DNA of 64,000 nt from the NCBI RefSeq assembly GCF_003790525.1, contig NZ_CP033635.1; one strand, 5' to 3'. A model generated the notes under the pieces. That model was given only the letters and a program-made list of their open reading frames with translations. It was not told where the DNA came from and ran no database searches. This DNA comes from Escherichia coli. Lineage in GTDB: Bacteria > Pseudomonadota > Gammaproteobacteria > Enterobacterales > Enterobacteriaceae. Positions within the stretch are counted from its first letter, which is position 1, and every line of letters begins with the position of its first letter. A program made the position numbers and the translations under genes. Below, piece after piece: positions 38,997-46,535 of this stretch.

Positions 38997-41255
38997 TTAG
39001 AAACGGAAGGTTGCGGTTGCAACGACCTGACGTTCTGCGCCCCAGAAGCAGCCATAGGTGTTAAAGCAGCTGGCGACGTATTCACGATCGAACAGGTTGT
39101 TGACATGCAGCGCCACGTTGGAGCCAGCCATGCCGACTCGCGCCAGATCATAACGCACTAACGCATCCACGACCGTATAACTTCCCACTTTAAAGGAGTT
39201 AGCCGGATCACCATAGCTGGAGCCAGTATAACGACCACCGGTGCCCAGCGTCAGACCTGAAAGCGGACCGTCAAAGAAGGTATAGTCAGCCCACAGCGAA
39301 GCCATGTGTTTTGGCACCTGTGCAGGCGTATTGCCTTTATAGGTAGTGTCGGTGGTGTATTCCGCATCGGTGTAAGTATAAGAACCTACTACGTTAACAC
39401 TCGCCGACAGCGCCGCTTTTGCTTCCAGTTCTACACCACGAGCGCGAATCTCACCGCCTTCAATCGAGAAATTGGGATTATTCGGATCCGCCATCAGGTT
39501 GTTGGTTTTGGTAAGCTGATACAGTGCGCCCGTCAGCACAATTGGGCGATCTTCCGGCACATATTTCACACCAACTTCATACTGTTTGCCTTTCGAAGGT
39601 GCAAACAGATCACCGTTTGCATCTGTCAAAGATGCTGGCTCAAACGACTCACTGTAGCTGAAGTAAGGCGTTACCCCGTTGTCGAACAGGTAGTTTACGC
39701 CACCACGCCAGGTGAACTGTTTGTCATCACGATCGGATTTATTACCGTAATCACGGTTGAAAGATGACTGTTCCGCCCAGTCATAGCGACCACCCAGAGT
39801 CACCAGCACCTTATCCCACTGCGCCTGATCCTGAACATACAGACCGGTTTGTTTCTGTTTAAGCAAAACGCGGTATGGGCCAGACGGATCCGGGTGAGCA
39901 CCAAAATCAAAGTCACTACGGTCTAAATTATAGATATCAGACGGTGCAACGGAACCGGCGTAACCGAACCAGGAGTCAATATCATTACGCATACGCATAA
40001 AGTCAACGCCGGTCAGCAGAGTGTGTTCAACCGAGCCGGTTGCGAATTTACTTTGCAACTGAGTATCAACAGAGAAGTTTTCTAATTTCTCATTATCGAT
40101 AACGTACTGACGAGTCAGTGTATGATTCCATTCTGACTGCGGGATACTTAAACATGGACTCGCCTTGAGTGCATCGTCGTCTTTGGTATACAGCGGATCC
40201 GAGCACATGCCGTAGCCATATACGCTCTTTTGCGAGACTTTATTTTGCGCAAAGCGCAGGTTCTGACGCACAGTAAAGGTGTCGTTAAATTCGTGATCGA
40301 AGCTGTAGCCCACCATCTTCTCATTACGAGAATAGGTGTTGTTCTTCGCCCCTTCATTAAAGTCTGTCGGCAGACGCTTACCGTTCGGCAGCGGCTCAAC
40401 GGTTCCCTCTTTCGGCAACCAGCCGTAATAACCGGTTTCCGGTTCGTTCTGGAAGTAAGAAAGGAAAGTGAAATTGGTTTTATCATCCGGGCGCCAGGTG
40501 AACGCTGGAGCAATAGCATAACGCTGCTCTTCTGCCCCCTTCTGCTGAGCATTGGCTGAACGCGCAATACCAGTCAGACGATAAGAGTAAACGCCGTCAT
40601 CATCCAGCGCATCACTGAAGTCAAAACCAGTCTGGAACAGGCTGTCAGTACCGGCTTTAAACTGAATTTCTTTCAGCGGTTCTGTAGTCGGGCGCTTGCT
40701 GACCATGTTCAACAGGCCGCCAGGGCTGCTTTTCCCGTACAGCACGGATACCGGACCACGCATGATTTCAGCGCGCTCCAGCATATACGGATCGATAACT
40801 GCATCGTTATAGAAGTTGCCCTGCATCTTCAGGCCATTCAGATAGTTGTTCTGGCTTTGGCCGTCAGCGGCAAATCCGCGGATGATCAGGTAATCGTAAG
40901 TGTTGGATGCGCCACGAGTTCCCACGGCAACGCCAGGAGTGTAGCTAAGAGCTTCTTTTACCGACTTCGGCTGATGCAGCGCCATCTCTTCGGCGGTCAC
41001 AACAGAAATAGACTGTGGCACTTTTTGAATCGGCGTATCGGTTTTAGTGCCGGTAGCGGACTGTCGCGCCGCAATAGTTGCAGCTGGCCCCCATGCGCTT
41101 TCTTGCGGCGCAGGTGCAGCGGTAACGGTGATAGTGTCTTCTTTCGGTTCAACCGCTGCCTGTGCATAAACAGACATGCCGCTAACCGCTGTGGCTACTA
41201 CAACTGCGATTTTACGCAGTGAGTGTTTTGGCTGAGCAGTTTTGGAACGCGCCAT
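38997..41255 (-). CDS. fhuA: TonB-dependent ferrichrome outer membrane receptor FhuA (phage T1/T5/phi80 receptor)
   Basis: 752-aa ORF with signal peptide, TonB-box region, plug and beta-barrel ending in F; N- and C-terminal regions match FhuA while central predicted-loop segments differ from the K-12 allele as I recall it (see findings). Confidence 0.93.
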   Translation of the reverse strand: MARSKTAQPKHSLRKIAVVVATAVSGMSVYAQAAVEPKEDTITVTAAPAPQESAWGPAATIAARQSATGTKTDTPIQKVPQSISVVTAEEMALHQPKSVKEALSYTPGVAVGTRGASNTYDYLIIRGFAADGQSQNNYLNGLKMQGNFYNDAVIDPYMLERAEIMRGPVSVLYGKSSPGGLLNMVSKRPTTEPLKEIQFKAGTDSLFQTGFDFSDALDDDGVYSYRLTGIARSANAQQKGAEEQRYAIAPAFTWRPDDKTNFTFLSYFQNEPETGYYGWLPKEGTVEPLPNGKRLPTDFNEGAKNNTYSRNEKMVGYSFDHEFNDTFTVRQNLRFAQNKVSQKSVYGYGMCSDPLYTKDDDALKASPCLSIPQSEWNHTLTRQYVIDNEKLENFSVDTQLQSKFATGSVEHTLLTGVDFMRMRNDIDSWFGYAGSVAPSDIYNLDRSDFDFGAHPDPSGPYRVLLKQKQTGLYVQDQAQWDKVLVTLGGRYDWAEQSSFNRDYGNKSDRDDKQFTWRGGVNYLFDNGVTPYFSYSESFEPASLTDANGDLFAPSKGKQYEVGVKYVPEDRPIVLTGALYQLTKTNNLMADPNNPNFSIEGGEIRARGVELEAKAALSASVNVVGSYTYTDAEYTTDTTYKGNTPAQVPKHMASLWADYTFFDGPLSGLTLGTGGRYTGSSYGDPANSFKVGSYTVVDALVRYDLARVGMAGSNVALHVNNLFDREYVASCFNTYGCFWGAERQVVATATFRF

Positions 41256-41474: not shown

Positions 41475-44009
41475 TTAATTACTACCAAACATATCCTTGA
41501 TCCAACCGGCTACACCGTCGCTGTCTTTCTGCTCTTGCTGAGCAGGTTGCTGTTGCGGCTGTTGCTGCGGCTGAGAAGACTGATCAAACGGATTGCCTGA
41601 CGGCTGCTGCTGCATCTCACTCTGCTGGCACAGCGATTGCGGATCGCTGGTCCAGACCGGCAAGACACGCATACCACCGCTGCAAACAAAGTTGCCGTCG
41701 TAGTCCACGCCCATATCTGCAATATCTTCCGGCGGAACAAGATTCAGCGGTGTTGGCGTCTGGTTAGCCAGATAACGCTGATAAATCGACATTGCCCCGC
41801 TGGCTCCATACAGTTTGGTCGGTTGGTTGTTATCACGGCCTACCCAGGTGATGGTCACCGTGCTGCCGTCAATGCCCGCAAACCAGGTATCTACGTTATT
41901 GTTGGTAGTTCCTGTTTTCCCTGCCAGATGCAGGTTCGGGTATTTCGCCCCAAGCTGACGCCCCGTACCACGTTGTACCACCTGCTGCATGGTCCATAGT
42001 GTCAGATACGCCGCCTGCGCCGGAACCGCGCGTTCCGCCTGCGGGAAGCTCTGATACAGCACTTTGCCATCTTCCGCAATTACCGAACGCAGCGCAGAAA
42101 GCGGTGCACGGTTACCGCCGCTGGCGATAGTCTGGAATGCCTGCGCCACTTCGATTGGCGTTAAGTTCAACGCCCCCAGCAGCATCGCCGGAACCGGATG
42201 CAGCTGATCTTTCGGCACGCCCAGTTTAATCCAGGTCTCCGTAACCGCAGGCAGCCCCAGCGCCATCCCCAGATTCACCGTCGGCACGTTCATCGAACGG
42301 GTCAACGCATCCACCAGCATCACTCTGCCACTTTCGCTATAACGACGGTCATCGTTCTGCGGTGACCAGACCTGGCCATTCGGCTGACGCAGCGCGATGG
42401 GCGCATCGGCAATCCACGTGTTCAGGCGATAGATTTTCGGCTGGCTTAAGGCAGTCAGATAAGTCGCTGGTTTTGCGAGGGAACCAATCGAACGACGCGC
42501 CTGCATCGCACGGTTGTAGCCCGCAAACTGCGGCTCAGAACCACCGACCATCGCACGAACTTCACCGCTAAAGCGGTCAACAACCACAATCGCGGTTTCA
42601 AGATCGCTCAACTTACGCTGTTTTTTCAGTGCCGGAATGCCTTCCACGGCGGCTTTTTCTGCCGCGTCCTGGGCCACCGAGTCAAAGGTAGTGAAGATCT
42701 TCACGCCGGAGAGATCTTTTACCTTATCGCCTAATTTAGCCTGAAGCTCCTGGCGCACCAGTTGCATAAAGGCTGGCTGAGGAGAGATCACCCCACCGCG
42801 CGGCTGAACACCCAGCGGACGTGCACTCAACATGTCATAGAGTTCTTGATCAATAATCTGTTGCTGTTGCAGCAGACGCAGTACCAGGTTACGTCGCTCC
42901 AGCGCCAGTTTCGGGTTACGCCACGGGTTGTAGATGGACGCCCCTTTCACCATACCCACCAACAGCGCCTGCTGATCGAGGCTCAATTCTTCTACCGGGC
43001 GACCAAAGTAATACAAGCTCGCCAGCGGGAAGCCGCGGATTTCGTTGTCGCCGCTCTGACCGAGATACACCTCGTTCATATACAGCTCAAGAATACGGTC
43101 TTTGCTGTAACGCGCGTCCATGATCAGCGCCATGTAGGCTTCGTTCGCTTTACGCCAGTAAGAACGCTCGCTGGAGAGGAACAGGTTTTTAACCAACTGT
43201 TGCGTCAGCGTACTCGCCCCCTGCACCGTGCGTCCGGCAGTCAGGTTTGCCAGCACCGCACGTCCGATTGAGTAGAGACTGATCCCATCATGCTCGTAGA
43301 AATGACGGTCTTCTGTCGCCAGCAAAGTATCCACCAGCAAATCCGGGAAACCACTGCGCGGCACAAACAGACGCTGCTCACCGTTTGGTGAAGAGATCAT
43401 AGTGATCAGGCGCGGATCAAGACGGAAGAAACCGAACTGACGGTTGTTCTCCATATTGACGATCGTCGCCAGATGATCGCCATCAAAGGTCAGACGTGCA
43501 CGCACCTGCCCTTCTTTACTGTCCGGGAAATCAAACGGACGGCGGATCATCTCAATGCTGTTGGCCTGCACGGTAAATTCGCCAGGACGGGTCATTTTCG
43601 ACACCTGACGATACTGGGTCGCCTCCAGCAGATTCACCATCTCGTTCTTGCTGATGGTCATGTCTGGCTCAAGGTTGACCATCCGGCCATAAACTGCCGC
43701 GGGCAGTTGCCAGACCTTGCCATCAATACGGCTGCGAATTTTTTGATCGAGATAAACGCCGTAAATGGCGATCAGCACGGCAAAAACGATAGCCAGTTTT
43801 AGCAGCAGCCATAGCCAGCCGCGTTTGCCACGAGGCTTACGCCCTTTGCCTTTGCCCTTACCTTTGCGCGGCATCGGTTCTTCATCCTCATAGTCATCAT
43901 AATCGTCGTAATCATCGTCATCTTCGTAACGACGACGGCTTACCTTTTGTTTGACCGGACGCGTCGGTTTCCCTTTGCGTCCAATTGGCTCGCGGTCATT
44001 CCCGGCCAT
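41475..44009 (-). CDS. mrcB: Penicillin-binding protein 1B (bifunctional glycosyltransferase/transpeptidase)
   Basis: ORF track gives 849 aa ([10 protein letters not shown]...); known 844-aa PBP1b begins [15 protein letters not shown]; acidic/basic N-terminal cytoplasmic tail and Q-rich C-terminus present. Confidence 0.93.
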
Positions 44010-44052
44010 GCTTTTTCTCCGCAATATTCAGGCGCAAAAGCCCGATTTTCTG

Positions 44053-44076
44053 TTCTTCTGTTGCAAGACAGAAGAA
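44053..44076. repeat. 9-bp inverted repeat in the hrpB / mrcB intergenic region
   Basis: TTCTTCTGT-TGCAAG-ACAGAAGAA between the hrpB stop (44103) and the mrcB start (44009). Confidence 0.3.
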
Positions 44077-44102
44077 GATATCTCTCAAATTTACTTTGAT
44101 CT

Positions 44103-46535
44103 TCACGAATACTTTTTCGTTCGTCGCGTTGGTGCGGTGTTTGCCGGGTCGTCCGGCCAGACATGTTTGGGATAACGCCCTTTCATCTCTTTTTGCACCT
44201 CACGGTACGCTCCTTTCCAGAAGGCGCTCAAATCACGCGTGATTTGCAGCGGCCTTTGGGCAGGGGAAAGTAACTCCAGCACCAGCGGCACGCGCCCCTG
44301 GGCGATCGTCGGATTGGTGGCCGCGCCAAACATCTCCTGCATTCTCACCGCCAGCGCGGGCGGGTTATCTTCATGATAACGAATGGCGATCCGGCTTCCC
44401 GTCGGCACAGTGTAATGCGCAGGCAATTCACTATCCAGACGTTGCTGCATTACCCAATCAAGTAATCCACGCAGTGCCTGATAAATATCGAGTGATTTCA
44501 AGCCGCGTAGCGAATGTACGCCTGTCATATGCGGCAGTAGCCACGTTTCCAGCGTCGCCAACAAACTCTCATCATCAACCGCTGGCCAGTCATATTCCGG
44601 CAACCACTTTGCGGCGCATAACAAACGCAAGCGTAGCTGTTCCGCTTCCGCCGTCCAGTTGAGCACGCTTAAACCTTTATCACGAATGCCGTTAAGCATC
44701 GCCTGATGCAACTCGTCTTCCGAGGGTTTCGCCAGTGGCTGCACTTTCACCATCAACTGACCGATTTGCAGCCGACGCCAGGCTTTCAGCGTACCTTGCG
44801 CGTCATCCCACTCCACGGTGTCCGATTGCTGTACCAGCTGCGGGCAGCGTTGTACTAACTCATCAATATCGACCGGTAGCGCCAGTAAAATCCGCGCATC
44901 CGGCGAGGCGCTGCCCTGCAATAATAACGGTGCGATCAACCATTCGTGGCGGCTTAGCGCATCGTCGGCATCGAGCATCGCCCCCATGCCGTTCGCCAGT
45001 TGATAGCGTTCATCTTGCCCACGGCGACGAGCAATGCGATCGGCATACGCTCTGGCAAGTAGCGGCGCGATAAGCGAACTGTCTGCCTCACCGCCGCGTA
45101 CGTTTAAGCGTTTTAACAGTTGCTGACTACGTTGCTGCCAGGCGGGTTGATTGCGCGAAAACGCCACGCCCAGGTCACTATTGCCCATCCGTGGCGGCTC
45201 TTCGAGAATGGCGGCAATTTTTGCCGCGGTAGCAGCTTCGTCGTCGCTCTTCGCGCTCACCAGCATTGCCGCTAAACGCGGATCGTTCCCCAGCGCTGCC
45301 ATTTTTTGCCCTTGCGCACTAAGCCGTTCACCGTCCAGCGCCCCCAGCATCCGTAACAGGCGTTTCGCGGCCAGTAGATTCACCGTTGGCGGTTGATCCA
45401 GCCAGCTCATCTGCGCCGGATCGCTGCATCCCCATTGCAGTAATTCCATCAGCAAACAGGAAAGATCGCTTTGTAATATTTCCGGTTCACTTTGCGCCGC
45501 GGCGCGTTCTGCTTGTTCTTTGGCGATTAAATGCAGGCAGATACCCGGATCCAGACGCCCGGCACGCCCGGCACGCTGCGTCATCGACGCCTGACTAACG
45601 CGTTGAGTAACCAGCCGCGTAAGCCCTGTACGCGGATCAAAACGCGCCACACGTTCCTGAGCACAATCCACCACCAGACGAATACCTTCGATGGTTAAAC
45701 TGGTTTCAGCAATATTGGTCGCCAGCACCACTTTGCGCATCCCTTGCGGTGCCGGGAGGATCGCTTTTCGCTGATCGTTCAGCGACAACGCGCCATACAG
45801 CGGGCAGAGCAACACATCACTGCCGATGCGCGAAGCCAGTTGTTCCTGCACACGCTGAATTTCTCCGACGCCAGGTAAAAATAACAGTAATGATCCGCTT
45901 TCCTGACGCAGCATTTCGGCGGTGGCTACCGCAACGGCTTCGTCAAAACGCTGATGCGCGGGCAGTGGTAAATAACGGCGTTCAACCGGAAACGAGCGCC
46001 CTTCTGAGATGATGACGGGCGCTTCTGGCAGCATTTGCTGCAAGCGGTCGTTGTCCAGCGTAGCCGACATAATCAGCAGTTTAAGGTCATCACGCAGACC
46101 TTGTTGCACATCGAGTAACAGCGCCAACGCCAAATCCGCCTGCAAACTGCGCTCATGAAACTCATCGAGGATCACCAATCCAACACCGCTCAGTTCCGGG
46201 TCACGCTGGATCATGCGCGTCAGCACGCCTTCGGTAACCACTTCCAGGCGGGTATTCGGCCCGACGCAGTTTTGCGCACGCATCCGGTAGCCAACGGTAT
46301 CGCCTGGCTTTTCGTTAAGCAGCTCCGCCAGCCGTTGCGCAACGTTACGCGCCGCCAGACGACGCGGCTCCAGCAGGATAACTTTCCCGTTAATGCCTGG
46401 ATGCGCCAGCAGTTGCAGCGGCAGCCAGGTTGATTTCCCGGCCCCGGTCGGCGCACTTAATAACACCTGCGATGCACCATCGAGGGCAGCAAGTAACTCA
46501 GGTAAGACGGCAGCAACGGGCAACGACGACACAAA
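44103..46535 (-). CDS. hrpB: ATP-dependent RNA helicase HrpB (DEAH box)
   Basis: 824-aa ORF from an upstream ATG; the recognised HrpB N-terminus (SSLPVAAVLPELL...) begins at an internal GTG at 46535. Walker A SAPTGAGKST and DEFH motif present. Start choice is uncertain. Confidence 0.85.
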   Translation of the reverse strand, partial: FVSSLPVAAVLPELLAALDGASQVLLSAPTGAGKSTWLPLQLLAHPGINGKVILLEPRRLAARNVAQRLAELLNEKPGDTVGYRMRAQNCVGPNTRLEVVTEGVLTRMIQRDPELSGVGLVILDEFHERSLQADLALALLLDVQQGLRDDLKLLIMSATLDNDRLQQMLPEAPVIISEGRSFPVERRYLPLPAHQRFDEAVAVATAEMLRQESGSLLLFLPGVGEIQRVQEQLASRIGSDVLLCPLYGALSLNDQRKAILPAPQGMRKVVLATNIAETSLTIEGIRLVVDCAQERVARFDPRTGLTRLVTQRVSQASMTQRAGRAGRLDPGICLHLIAKEQAERAAAQSEPEILQSDLSCLLMELLQWGCSDPAQMSWLDQPPTVNLLAAKRLLRMLGALDGERLSAQGQKMAALGNDPRLAAMLVSAKSDDEAATAAKIAAILEEPPRMGNSDLGVAFSRNQPAWQQRSQQLLKRLNVRGGEADSSLIAPLLARAYADRIARRRGQDERYQLANGMGAMLDADDALSRHEWLIAPLLLQGSASPDARILLALPVDIDELVQRCPQLVQQSDTVEWDDAQGTLKAWRRLQIGQLMVKVQPLAKPSEDELHQAMLNGIRDKGLSVLNWTAEAEQLRLRLLCAAKWLPEYDWPAVDDESLLATLETWLLPHMTGVHSLRGLKSLDIYQALRGLLDWVMQQRLDSELPAHYTVPTGSRIAIRYHEDNPPALAVRMQEMFGAATNPTIAQGRVPLVLELLSPAQRPLQITRDLSAFWKGAYREVQKEMKGRYPKHVWPDDPANTAPTRRTKKYS

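Follow-up and report, generated by a model that had tools for sequence, protein, structure and literature searches.

The closest described counterpart of the locus studied here is the mrcB gene of Escherichia coli K-12, whose product, PBP1b, is made in more than one form. The shorter form, PBP1b-gamma, starts at Met46 according to published work, and an M46L construct, in which gamma is abolished, yields the longer form, alpha, alone (PMC13423804). The same paper, from 2026, reported that PBP1b is brought to the division site by the N-terminus present only in alpha, with R6 critical and FtsA the probable partner, and that a septal peptidoglycan wedge is built there (PMC13423804). For the isoforms themselves, that paper credits Broome-Smith 1985 and Chalut 2001. 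Using Ribo-RET, Meydan et al. recovered mrcB as one of three E. coli genes whose internal starts had been characterised before, listing it together with infB and clpB (10.1101/520783). Like infB and clpB, mrcB has two in-frame sites on one mRNA, each with a Shine-Dalgarno sequence and a start codon, which produce N-terminally nested isoforms. Unlike in those two genes, the extra N-terminal segment is the short disordered cytoplasmic tail of a membrane protein, rather than a folded domain.

The second close system is MrcB of Salmonella Typhimurium, for which a 2024 mBio study described the same pair of proteoforms, with a Ribo-RET peak at the internal site and Ribo-RET support for both starts (PMC11005335). 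According to that study, the extension is 42 amino acids long and passes from a basic into an acidic stretch (PMC11005335). The Salmonella protein has the same architecture as the one analyzed here, and the 24 nucleotides upstream of its internal ATG are identical (GATGACTATGAGGATGAAGAACCG). It differs in having a shorter acidic block, which places the internal Met at position 43, and in carrying three Lys-Gly units compared with four.

The locus described here lies in a 64,000-nucleotide stretch of E. coli DNA, referred to as the window. Residues 1 to 60 of K-12 PBP1b, as printed in PMC13423804, are identical to those encoded in the window; K-12 also shares the starts at Met1 and Met46 and the hrpB-mrcB-fhuA gene context. 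Across a 251-nucleotide 5' region, K-12 strains are 99.6% identical to the window. The one difference is synonymous and falls in the codon after Trp67, where the window has G and K-12 has A, so that the tail itself is the same. In addition, K-12 carries a GC-rich palindromic insertion of about 100 bp between hrpB and mrcB, which is missing from the window.

The gene carrying the tail is mrcB, encoding PBP1b. Its ATG start codon occupies positions 44009 to 44007 on the minus strand, and a frame of 844 codons closes at 41475; this ATG is also where RefSeq begins mrcB in all E. coli genomes fetched. The product scored 1734.3 bits against NCBIfam NF007061 (cutoff, 1120) over residues 1 to 843 and 1247.4 bits against TIGR02071 (cutoff, 717.75) in an end-to-end match, placing the full-length protein above the curated cutoff of both PBP1b equivalogs. 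The Pfam domains were found in the order expected of PBP1b: PF14812 (PBP1_TM) at residues 1 to 79, covering the full 85-position profile with an E value of 3.8e-25, followed by PF14814 (UB2H) at 113 to 197, PF00912 (Transgly) at 209 to 379, and PF00905 (Transpeptidase) at 473 to 714. The tail is the archetype of the PF14812 family, from which it shows no difference, and the orthologues carry the same domain. On the same strand, mrcB is flanked by hrpB (44103-46532) and fhuA (38997-41255), whose products match the HrpB and FhuA equivalogs with 1503 and 1448 bits, respectively, reproducing the enterobacterial hrpB-mrcB-fhuA order in agreement with RefSeq. Between positions 43300 and 44600, no sigma-70-like promoter was detected, no Rfam family was matched, and no terminator was predicted beyond chance, the one weak hit lying on the opposite strand inside hrpB. 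Two plus-strand open reading frames over the tail region (43951-44175 and 43985-44242) are mechanical calls, antisense to the annotated genes. The features of the gene and its tail are as follows.

41475-44009, minus strand: mrcB (ponB) open reading frame encoding the 844-residue PBP1b-alpha, stop codon included (translation and NCBIfam equivalogs).
44017-44020, minus strand: GGAG, Shine-Dalgarno sequence for the alpha start at Met1 (sequence; anti-Shine-Dalgarno duplex, -6.6 kcal/mol).
43968-44009, minus strand: residues 1 to 14, an alpha-specific, conserved peptide at the N-terminus, published as the FtsA-binding "N-pep" (near-invariant in Enterobacterales; PMC13423804).
43929-43979, minus strand: first basic stretch, residues 11 to 27 (translation).
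43878-43928, minus strand: acidic and aromatic Asp/Glu/Tyr block, residues 28 to 44, specific to alpha, net charge of -13 (translation and TRF).
43911-43916, minus strand: GATGAT (Asp32-Asp33), a perfect two-copy repeat and the site of origin of the allele lacking one Asp (alignments).
43885-43889, minus strand: GAGGA spanning Glu41-Asp42, a Shine-Dalgarno-like motif upstream of the internal start (anti-Shine-Dalgarno duplex, -6.1 kcal/mol).
43872-43874, minus strand: ATG of Met46, the PBP1b-gamma start codon (sequence; PMC13423804, 10.1101/520783, PMC11005335).
43818-43871, minus strand: juxtamembrane basic Lys/Gly/Arg block, residues 47 to 64, present in both isoforms (translation and TRF).
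43843-43856, minus strand: GGCAAAGGCAAAGG, a perfect hexamer repeat of 2.3 copies and the site of origin of the allele lacking one Lys-Gly (alignments).
43749-43817, minus strand: transmembrane helix, approximately residues 65 to 87, with approximate boundaries (hydrophobic run, overlapping the PF14812 match).

Translation of the minus strand from 44009 reproduced exactly the acidic-then-basic peptide given for the PBP1b N-terminus in a preliminary description of this DNA. The acidic block (residues 28 to 44) is followed by Pro45-Met46, the basic block (47 to 64), and the hydrophobic helix. The interval of that description, 43850 to 44009, covers the acidic block and Met46; its lower bound, however, cuts the basic block at Lys53/Gly54, and the description did not place the gene on the minus strand. 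Net charge runs from +8 over residues 1 to 27, through -13 over 28 to 44, to +10 over 45 to 64. When the same protein was permuted 20,000 times, no shuffle placed more than 10 acidic residues where the acidic block has 13 of 17, and the 10 basic residues among the 18 of block 47 to 64 were also infrequent (P = 0.0024). Charge segregation in the tail is thus far above chance for the composition of PBP1b. Residues 1 to 52 are absent from all solved PBP1b structures, which begin at residues 53 to 58.

The DNA encoding the tail had been called near-repetitive, a description that is accurate but weak, as TRF found imperfect arrays only. In the acidic block, it reported a period-9 array of 4.0 copies at 43894 to 43929 (77% matches; score, 44), and in the basic block, a period-6 array of 4.2 copies at 43843 to 43867 (78% matches; score, 36). 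For comparison, synonymous codons were resampled with weights derived from codon frequencies in mrcB, hrpB, and fhuA. No perfect tandem tract in the acidic block exceeds 7 nucleotides, against a mean maximum of 15.3 in the resampled sequences, only 2.5% of which were as short. The block uses six GAT and three GAC codons for Asp and two TAT and two TAC codons for Tyr, and its perfect repeats are short because this alternation interrupts them. The Lys-Gly block contains a single perfect tract of 14 nucleotides, of a length typical of the resamples. Self-matches of the tail DNA at lags of 3, 6, and 9 were at the level predicted from the peptide alone. The tail DNA is therefore no more repetitive than the peptide requires.

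We then determined how tail length varies among E. coli strains. A 251-nucleotide query across the tail matched 5,424 of 5,426 complete E. coli genomes, with at least 99% identity in 5,088 and 95 to 99% in the other 336. Since identity of 99% or more over this length is too high to hide a 3-bp gap, the reference tail length is present in 93.8% of the 5,424 genomes. The lowest-ranked matches that were fetched had lost, in frame, one GAT (DDDD to DDD), one GGCAAA (four Lys-Gly units to three), or both. A query for the exact deletion junction found the allele lacking one Asp in at least 180 genomes (3.3%), and a junction-specific query found the 6-bp Lys-Gly deletion in 143 (2.6%). Querying with the reference allele of the Lys-Gly block gave 4,921 exact matches, 359 genomes with single-nucleotide polymorphisms only, and the 143 lacking 6 bp, and no 6-bp gain was present in its identity band among the 5,424 genomes. 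For the acidic block, the reference query gave 5,222 exact matches, 6 genomes with single-nucleotide polymorphisms only, and 196 in the 90 to 95% band, the one expected for a 3-bp gain or loss; the 80 to 90% band was empty, showing no 6-bp change in this block among the 5,424 genomes. The 196 comprise the 180 exact GAT deletions and about 16 others, of which two were read, and a rare 3-bp gain may be present among those others. Strain LR14, read from this band, has the GAT deletion with an extra single-nucleotide polymorphism. A third allele, present in at least one genome, was found in CFS3292, for which BLAST returned a partial ungapped match; it has lost 9 bp, corresponding to one Asp-Asp-Tyr unit.

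All of these deletions lie between short direct repeats: GAT next to GAT, GGCAAA next to GGCAAA, and, for the 9-bp loss, TACGACGAT flanked by GATTA on each side. To place them on strain backgrounds, haplotypes were compared at 17 sampled loci, using 1 kb of hrpB and 1.2 kb of mrcB outside the tail. Six of the sampled carriers of the Asp deletion share one haplotype, but JNE23-011 and LR14, which also lack the Asp, each have a different one. Two related B2-like backgrounds carry the Lys-Gly deletion, as does the O157-like LR14, and the haplotype of CFS3292 is identical to that of K-12 at all variable sites. Judging from these alignments, the occurrence of length alleles on several backgrounds fits occasional slippage, and recombination instead of recurrent slippage could account for part of the spread. 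Tail length among strains is consequently not strictly invariant, with about 94% of genomes at the reference length and the variants found differing from it by one unit per block. The repeated units had been proposed as potential slippage sites; that potential is real but small, with in-frame single-unit alleles of either block in about 3% of genomes each.

Length alleles that stay in frame, occurring in either block and on multiple haplotype backgrounds, are also what would be seen at a contingency locus, in which frequent slippage tunes or switches PBP1b-alpha. We consider such a phase- or length-variable locus highly improbable. The repeat units of 3, 6, and 9 nucleotides are all multiples of three, making on/off switching impossible, and the perfect tracts reach only 6 to 14 nucleotides. 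The codon alternation in the acidic block lowers its proneness to slippage, the population is dominated by one length with single-unit variants and no Lys-Gly gain, and the location of six of seven sampled carriers of the Asp deletion on one haplotype indicates mostly clonal inheritance. Phase variation was therefore rejected, as the locus has neither a long tract that changes frame or spacing nor frequent multi-step variation.

To see which properties of the tail are shared more widely, we compared 46 distinct PBP1b tails from Enterobacterales, comprising partial and complete N-termini. They follow a common plan, in which a near-invariant 14-residue N-terminus is followed by a basic stretch ending in RRR, an Asp/Glu/aromatic block, a Pro-X-Pro-Arg/Lys-Lys junction, a basic Lys/Gly/Arg/Pro block, and the helix. 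Between species, the acidic block ranges from roughly 10 to 32 amino acids. Every orthologue keeps an aromatic residue within it, and the number of Tyr residues ranges from one to four with varying spacing. Orthologues resembling those of Pantoea and Erwinia have Phe at the aromatic positions (DDFDNDDFDD).

These comparisons bear on the function of the Asp/Glu/Tyr block, a segment that PMC13423804 does not discuss, neither "acidic" nor "linker" occurring in that paper. Rather than a passive spacer, the block could be a regulated modification site, for instance for tyrosine phosphorylation. In the window, Tyr recurs at a spacing of three to four residues within the acidic run. Tyr residues spaced in an acidic context resemble generic tyrosine-kinase substrates, and retention of an aromatic residue by all orthologues would agree with a conserved site. 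However, the Phe that replaces Tyr in the Pantoea- and Erwinia-like tails cannot be phosphorylated, the number and spacing of Tyr are not maintained, and a literature search for mrcB together with phosphotyrosine returned nothing relevant. Regulated modification of the block is accordingly very unlikely in our assessment, and tyrosine phosphorylation as its conserved function was rejected in view of the Phe-containing orthologues and the empty search.

Within codons 1 to 70 of the window's mrcB, the only in-frame ATG, GTG, or TTG codons are those of Met1 and Met46. Both are preceded by Shine-Dalgarno-like sequences of similar calculated strength, GGAG at Met1 (-6.6 kcal/mol) and GAGGA at Met46 (-6.1 kcal/mol), the latter lying about 10 to 11 nucleotides upstream of its ATG, near the upper limit of typical spacings. 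Met46 therefore combines the two elements of a dual-start gene, an in-frame start codon inside the open reading frame and a Shine-Dalgarno-like sequence upstream. At the equivalent position X of the 46 tails, Met occurs in 23 and Val in 13, with Thr, Ala, and Gly as single cases; about five further tails have Met in a Met-Ala/Ser/Thr-Arg/Lys-Lys context.

The codons at this position were read from the DNA of ten orthologues. All seven Val codons are GTG, which can itself serve as a start codon, whereas other Val residues of the same tails are encoded by GTC, GTT, or GTA. In six of these seven orthologues, GAGGA or GAGGAG lies 8 to 11 nucleotides upstream, with calculated energies of -6 to -13 kcal/mol; P0014 keeps GTG with a weak upstream Shine-Dalgarno sequence (-1.9 kcal/mol). 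The start codon has been lost in two orthologues, as ACG (Thr) and GCG (Ala). A single transition separates each of these codons from ATG or GTG, and the two orthologues presumably make alpha only. Since the seven GTG cases are phylogenetically non-independent, they support, without establishing, selection on the internal start.

The in-frame Met that the preliminary description had put forward as a candidate start for a shorter isoform is thus Met46, the published start of PBP1b-gamma, and the ribosome-profiling peaks that would mark initiation there are already on record, from Ribo-RET in E. coli (10.1101/520783) and S. Typhimurium (PMC11005335). Another form of PBP1b, beta, has been attributed to proteolysis. 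That attribution lends some background to the idea that Met46 is an ordinary internal Met and that shorter forms arise from alpha by proteolysis only, an idea we find barely credible given the initiating ribosomes caught at the internal site in two species (10.1101/520783; PMC11005335), the use of M46L to abolish gamma (PMC13423804), and a codon that remains ATG or GTG across Enterobacterales, in most cases preceded by a Shine-Dalgarno sequence, with GTG at all seven Val codons read.

Collectively, we are confident that the region encodes a dual-start cytoplasmic tail of PBP1b and that its near-repetitive DNA is a by-product of a low-complexity peptide. Initiation at Met1, through the GGAG Shine-Dalgarno sequence, produces PBP1b-alpha, and initiation at Met46, probably through the GAGGA contributed by the last acidic codons, produces PBP1b-gamma. 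The purine-rich GAN codons of the acidic block may supply this second Shine-Dalgarno sequence incidentally. The Lys/Gly/Arg block adjoining the helix, kept in both isoforms, is likely to act as a positive-inside topology determinant and as an anchor to anionic lipids. Residues 1 to 45, consisting of the N-terminal peptide, the basic stretch, and the acidic block, are restricted to alpha, and in published work this extension recruits alpha to the division site, probably by way of FtsA. Within it, the acidic block is most likely a disordered spacer that is repelled by the membrane and whose length is loosely constrained. Such loose constraint would explain why lengths differ so widely between species and why losses of one unit are tolerated. 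Replication would occasionally slip at the few short direct repeats that are perfect, removing one in-frame unit at a time and giving rise to the rare length alleles, whose effect is probably small; here, near-neutrality is assumed.

It is conceivable, but in our judgment unlikely, that the acidic block serves two purposes at once. As a peptide, it would act as a spacer of tunable length, repelled by the membrane, and determine the reach of alpha's FtsA-binding N-peptide; as RNA, its terminal GAG-GAT/GAG would provide the Shine-Dalgarno sequence that sets gamma output. The length alleles (loss of Asp, Asp-Asp-Tyr, or Lys-Gly) and the ACG and GCG variants without the start would then shift the alpha-to-gamma balance or septal recruitment by lineage. 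If this were true, it would amount to heritable differences in division-site fortification.

The tail is the textbook dual-start tail of PBP1b, and the internal start at Met46, the two isoforms, and the role of the alpha-specific N-terminus were already published, so that their recognition here is a rediscovery. What this analysis adds is a length census in E. coli, in which the tail is nearly fixed with three rare in-frame alleles, and evidence that across Enterobacterales the codon of the internal start stays ATG or GTG, usually behind a Shine-Dalgarno sequence. The natural variants identified, namely the ACG and GCG codons and the length alleles, are ready-made test cases for work on PBP1b.

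The distance from the hrpB stop codon to the mrcB ATG was found to differ among strains in the comparison of the window with other Escherichia coli loci. The window shares a 93-nt spacer with EC581, SCU-484, APEC O1, and the genomes that lack one GAT codon in the acidic block of PBP1b (-Asp carriers), and the spacer measures 195 nt in K-12, O157:H7, IAI1, LR14, and CFS3292. The 195-nt spacer is the longer of the two because it carries a GC-rich palindromic insertion of ~100 bp, which contains ...CCCTCTCCCTGTGGGAGAGGGCCGGGGTGAGGGC...CCCTCACCCTAACCCTCTCCC... and which we take to resemble a boxC/REP-type intergenic repeat. The insertion is a presence/absence polymorphism among the compared strains. 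The regions of the window considered here are as follows.

44025-44102: hrpB-mrcB intergenic region, compared with loci L004, L003, L012, L018, L020, and L021.
44054-44075, minus strand: hairpin TCTTCTG-TCTTGCAA-CAGAAGA, with a 7-bp stem and an 8-nt loop.
41529-41627, minus strand: second low-complexity segment, at the PBP1b C-terminus (residues ~795-827), identified by translation.

The hairpin is located downstream of the hrpB stop codon and upstream of the mrcB Shine-Dalgarno sequence. Its stem is identical in all five aligned strains, with a single loop-base change in K-12. No T-run follows the hairpin on its 3' side, and thus it is not an obvious terminator.

At the start of mrcB itself, the longest-ORF call opens at a TTG five codons 5' of the annotated ATG (44010-44024, minus strand), and this extension overlaps the GGAG Shine-Dalgarno sequence; the TTG was rejected as a real start, since it is chosen only by the rule that takes the longest ORF and is thus artefactual. 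Two deposited PBP1b sequences, P0027 and P0032, begin at the internal start (MPRKGKGKG... and MPRKAKGKGG..., respectively) as called by some gene-prediction programs, indicating that public databases sometimes place the beginning of mrcB at the start of gamma, the shorter isoform.

When 5,426 complete E. coli genomes were searched with a 251-nt query over the mrcB 5' region, no match was found in two genomes, and three matches fell on records labelled as plasmids. These cases may reflect an mrcB gene that is deleted or disrupted, or replicons that carry the wrong label. Translation of the window further revealed that the C-terminal segment is a 33-residue Gln/Pro-rich repeat, a candidate further site at which in-frame slippage alleles might arise.

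Among the deposited N-termini P0012, P0035, P0061, P0064, and P0055, several have an acidic block that is frame-shifted before the frame is restored, and in one the tail contains an internal duplication of 34 residues. The most likely source of these shifted and duplicated tails is faulty sequencing or assembly of a low-complexity stretch. A frameshift in the acidic block would abolish alpha, the isoform that begins at Met1, but would spare the gamma start.
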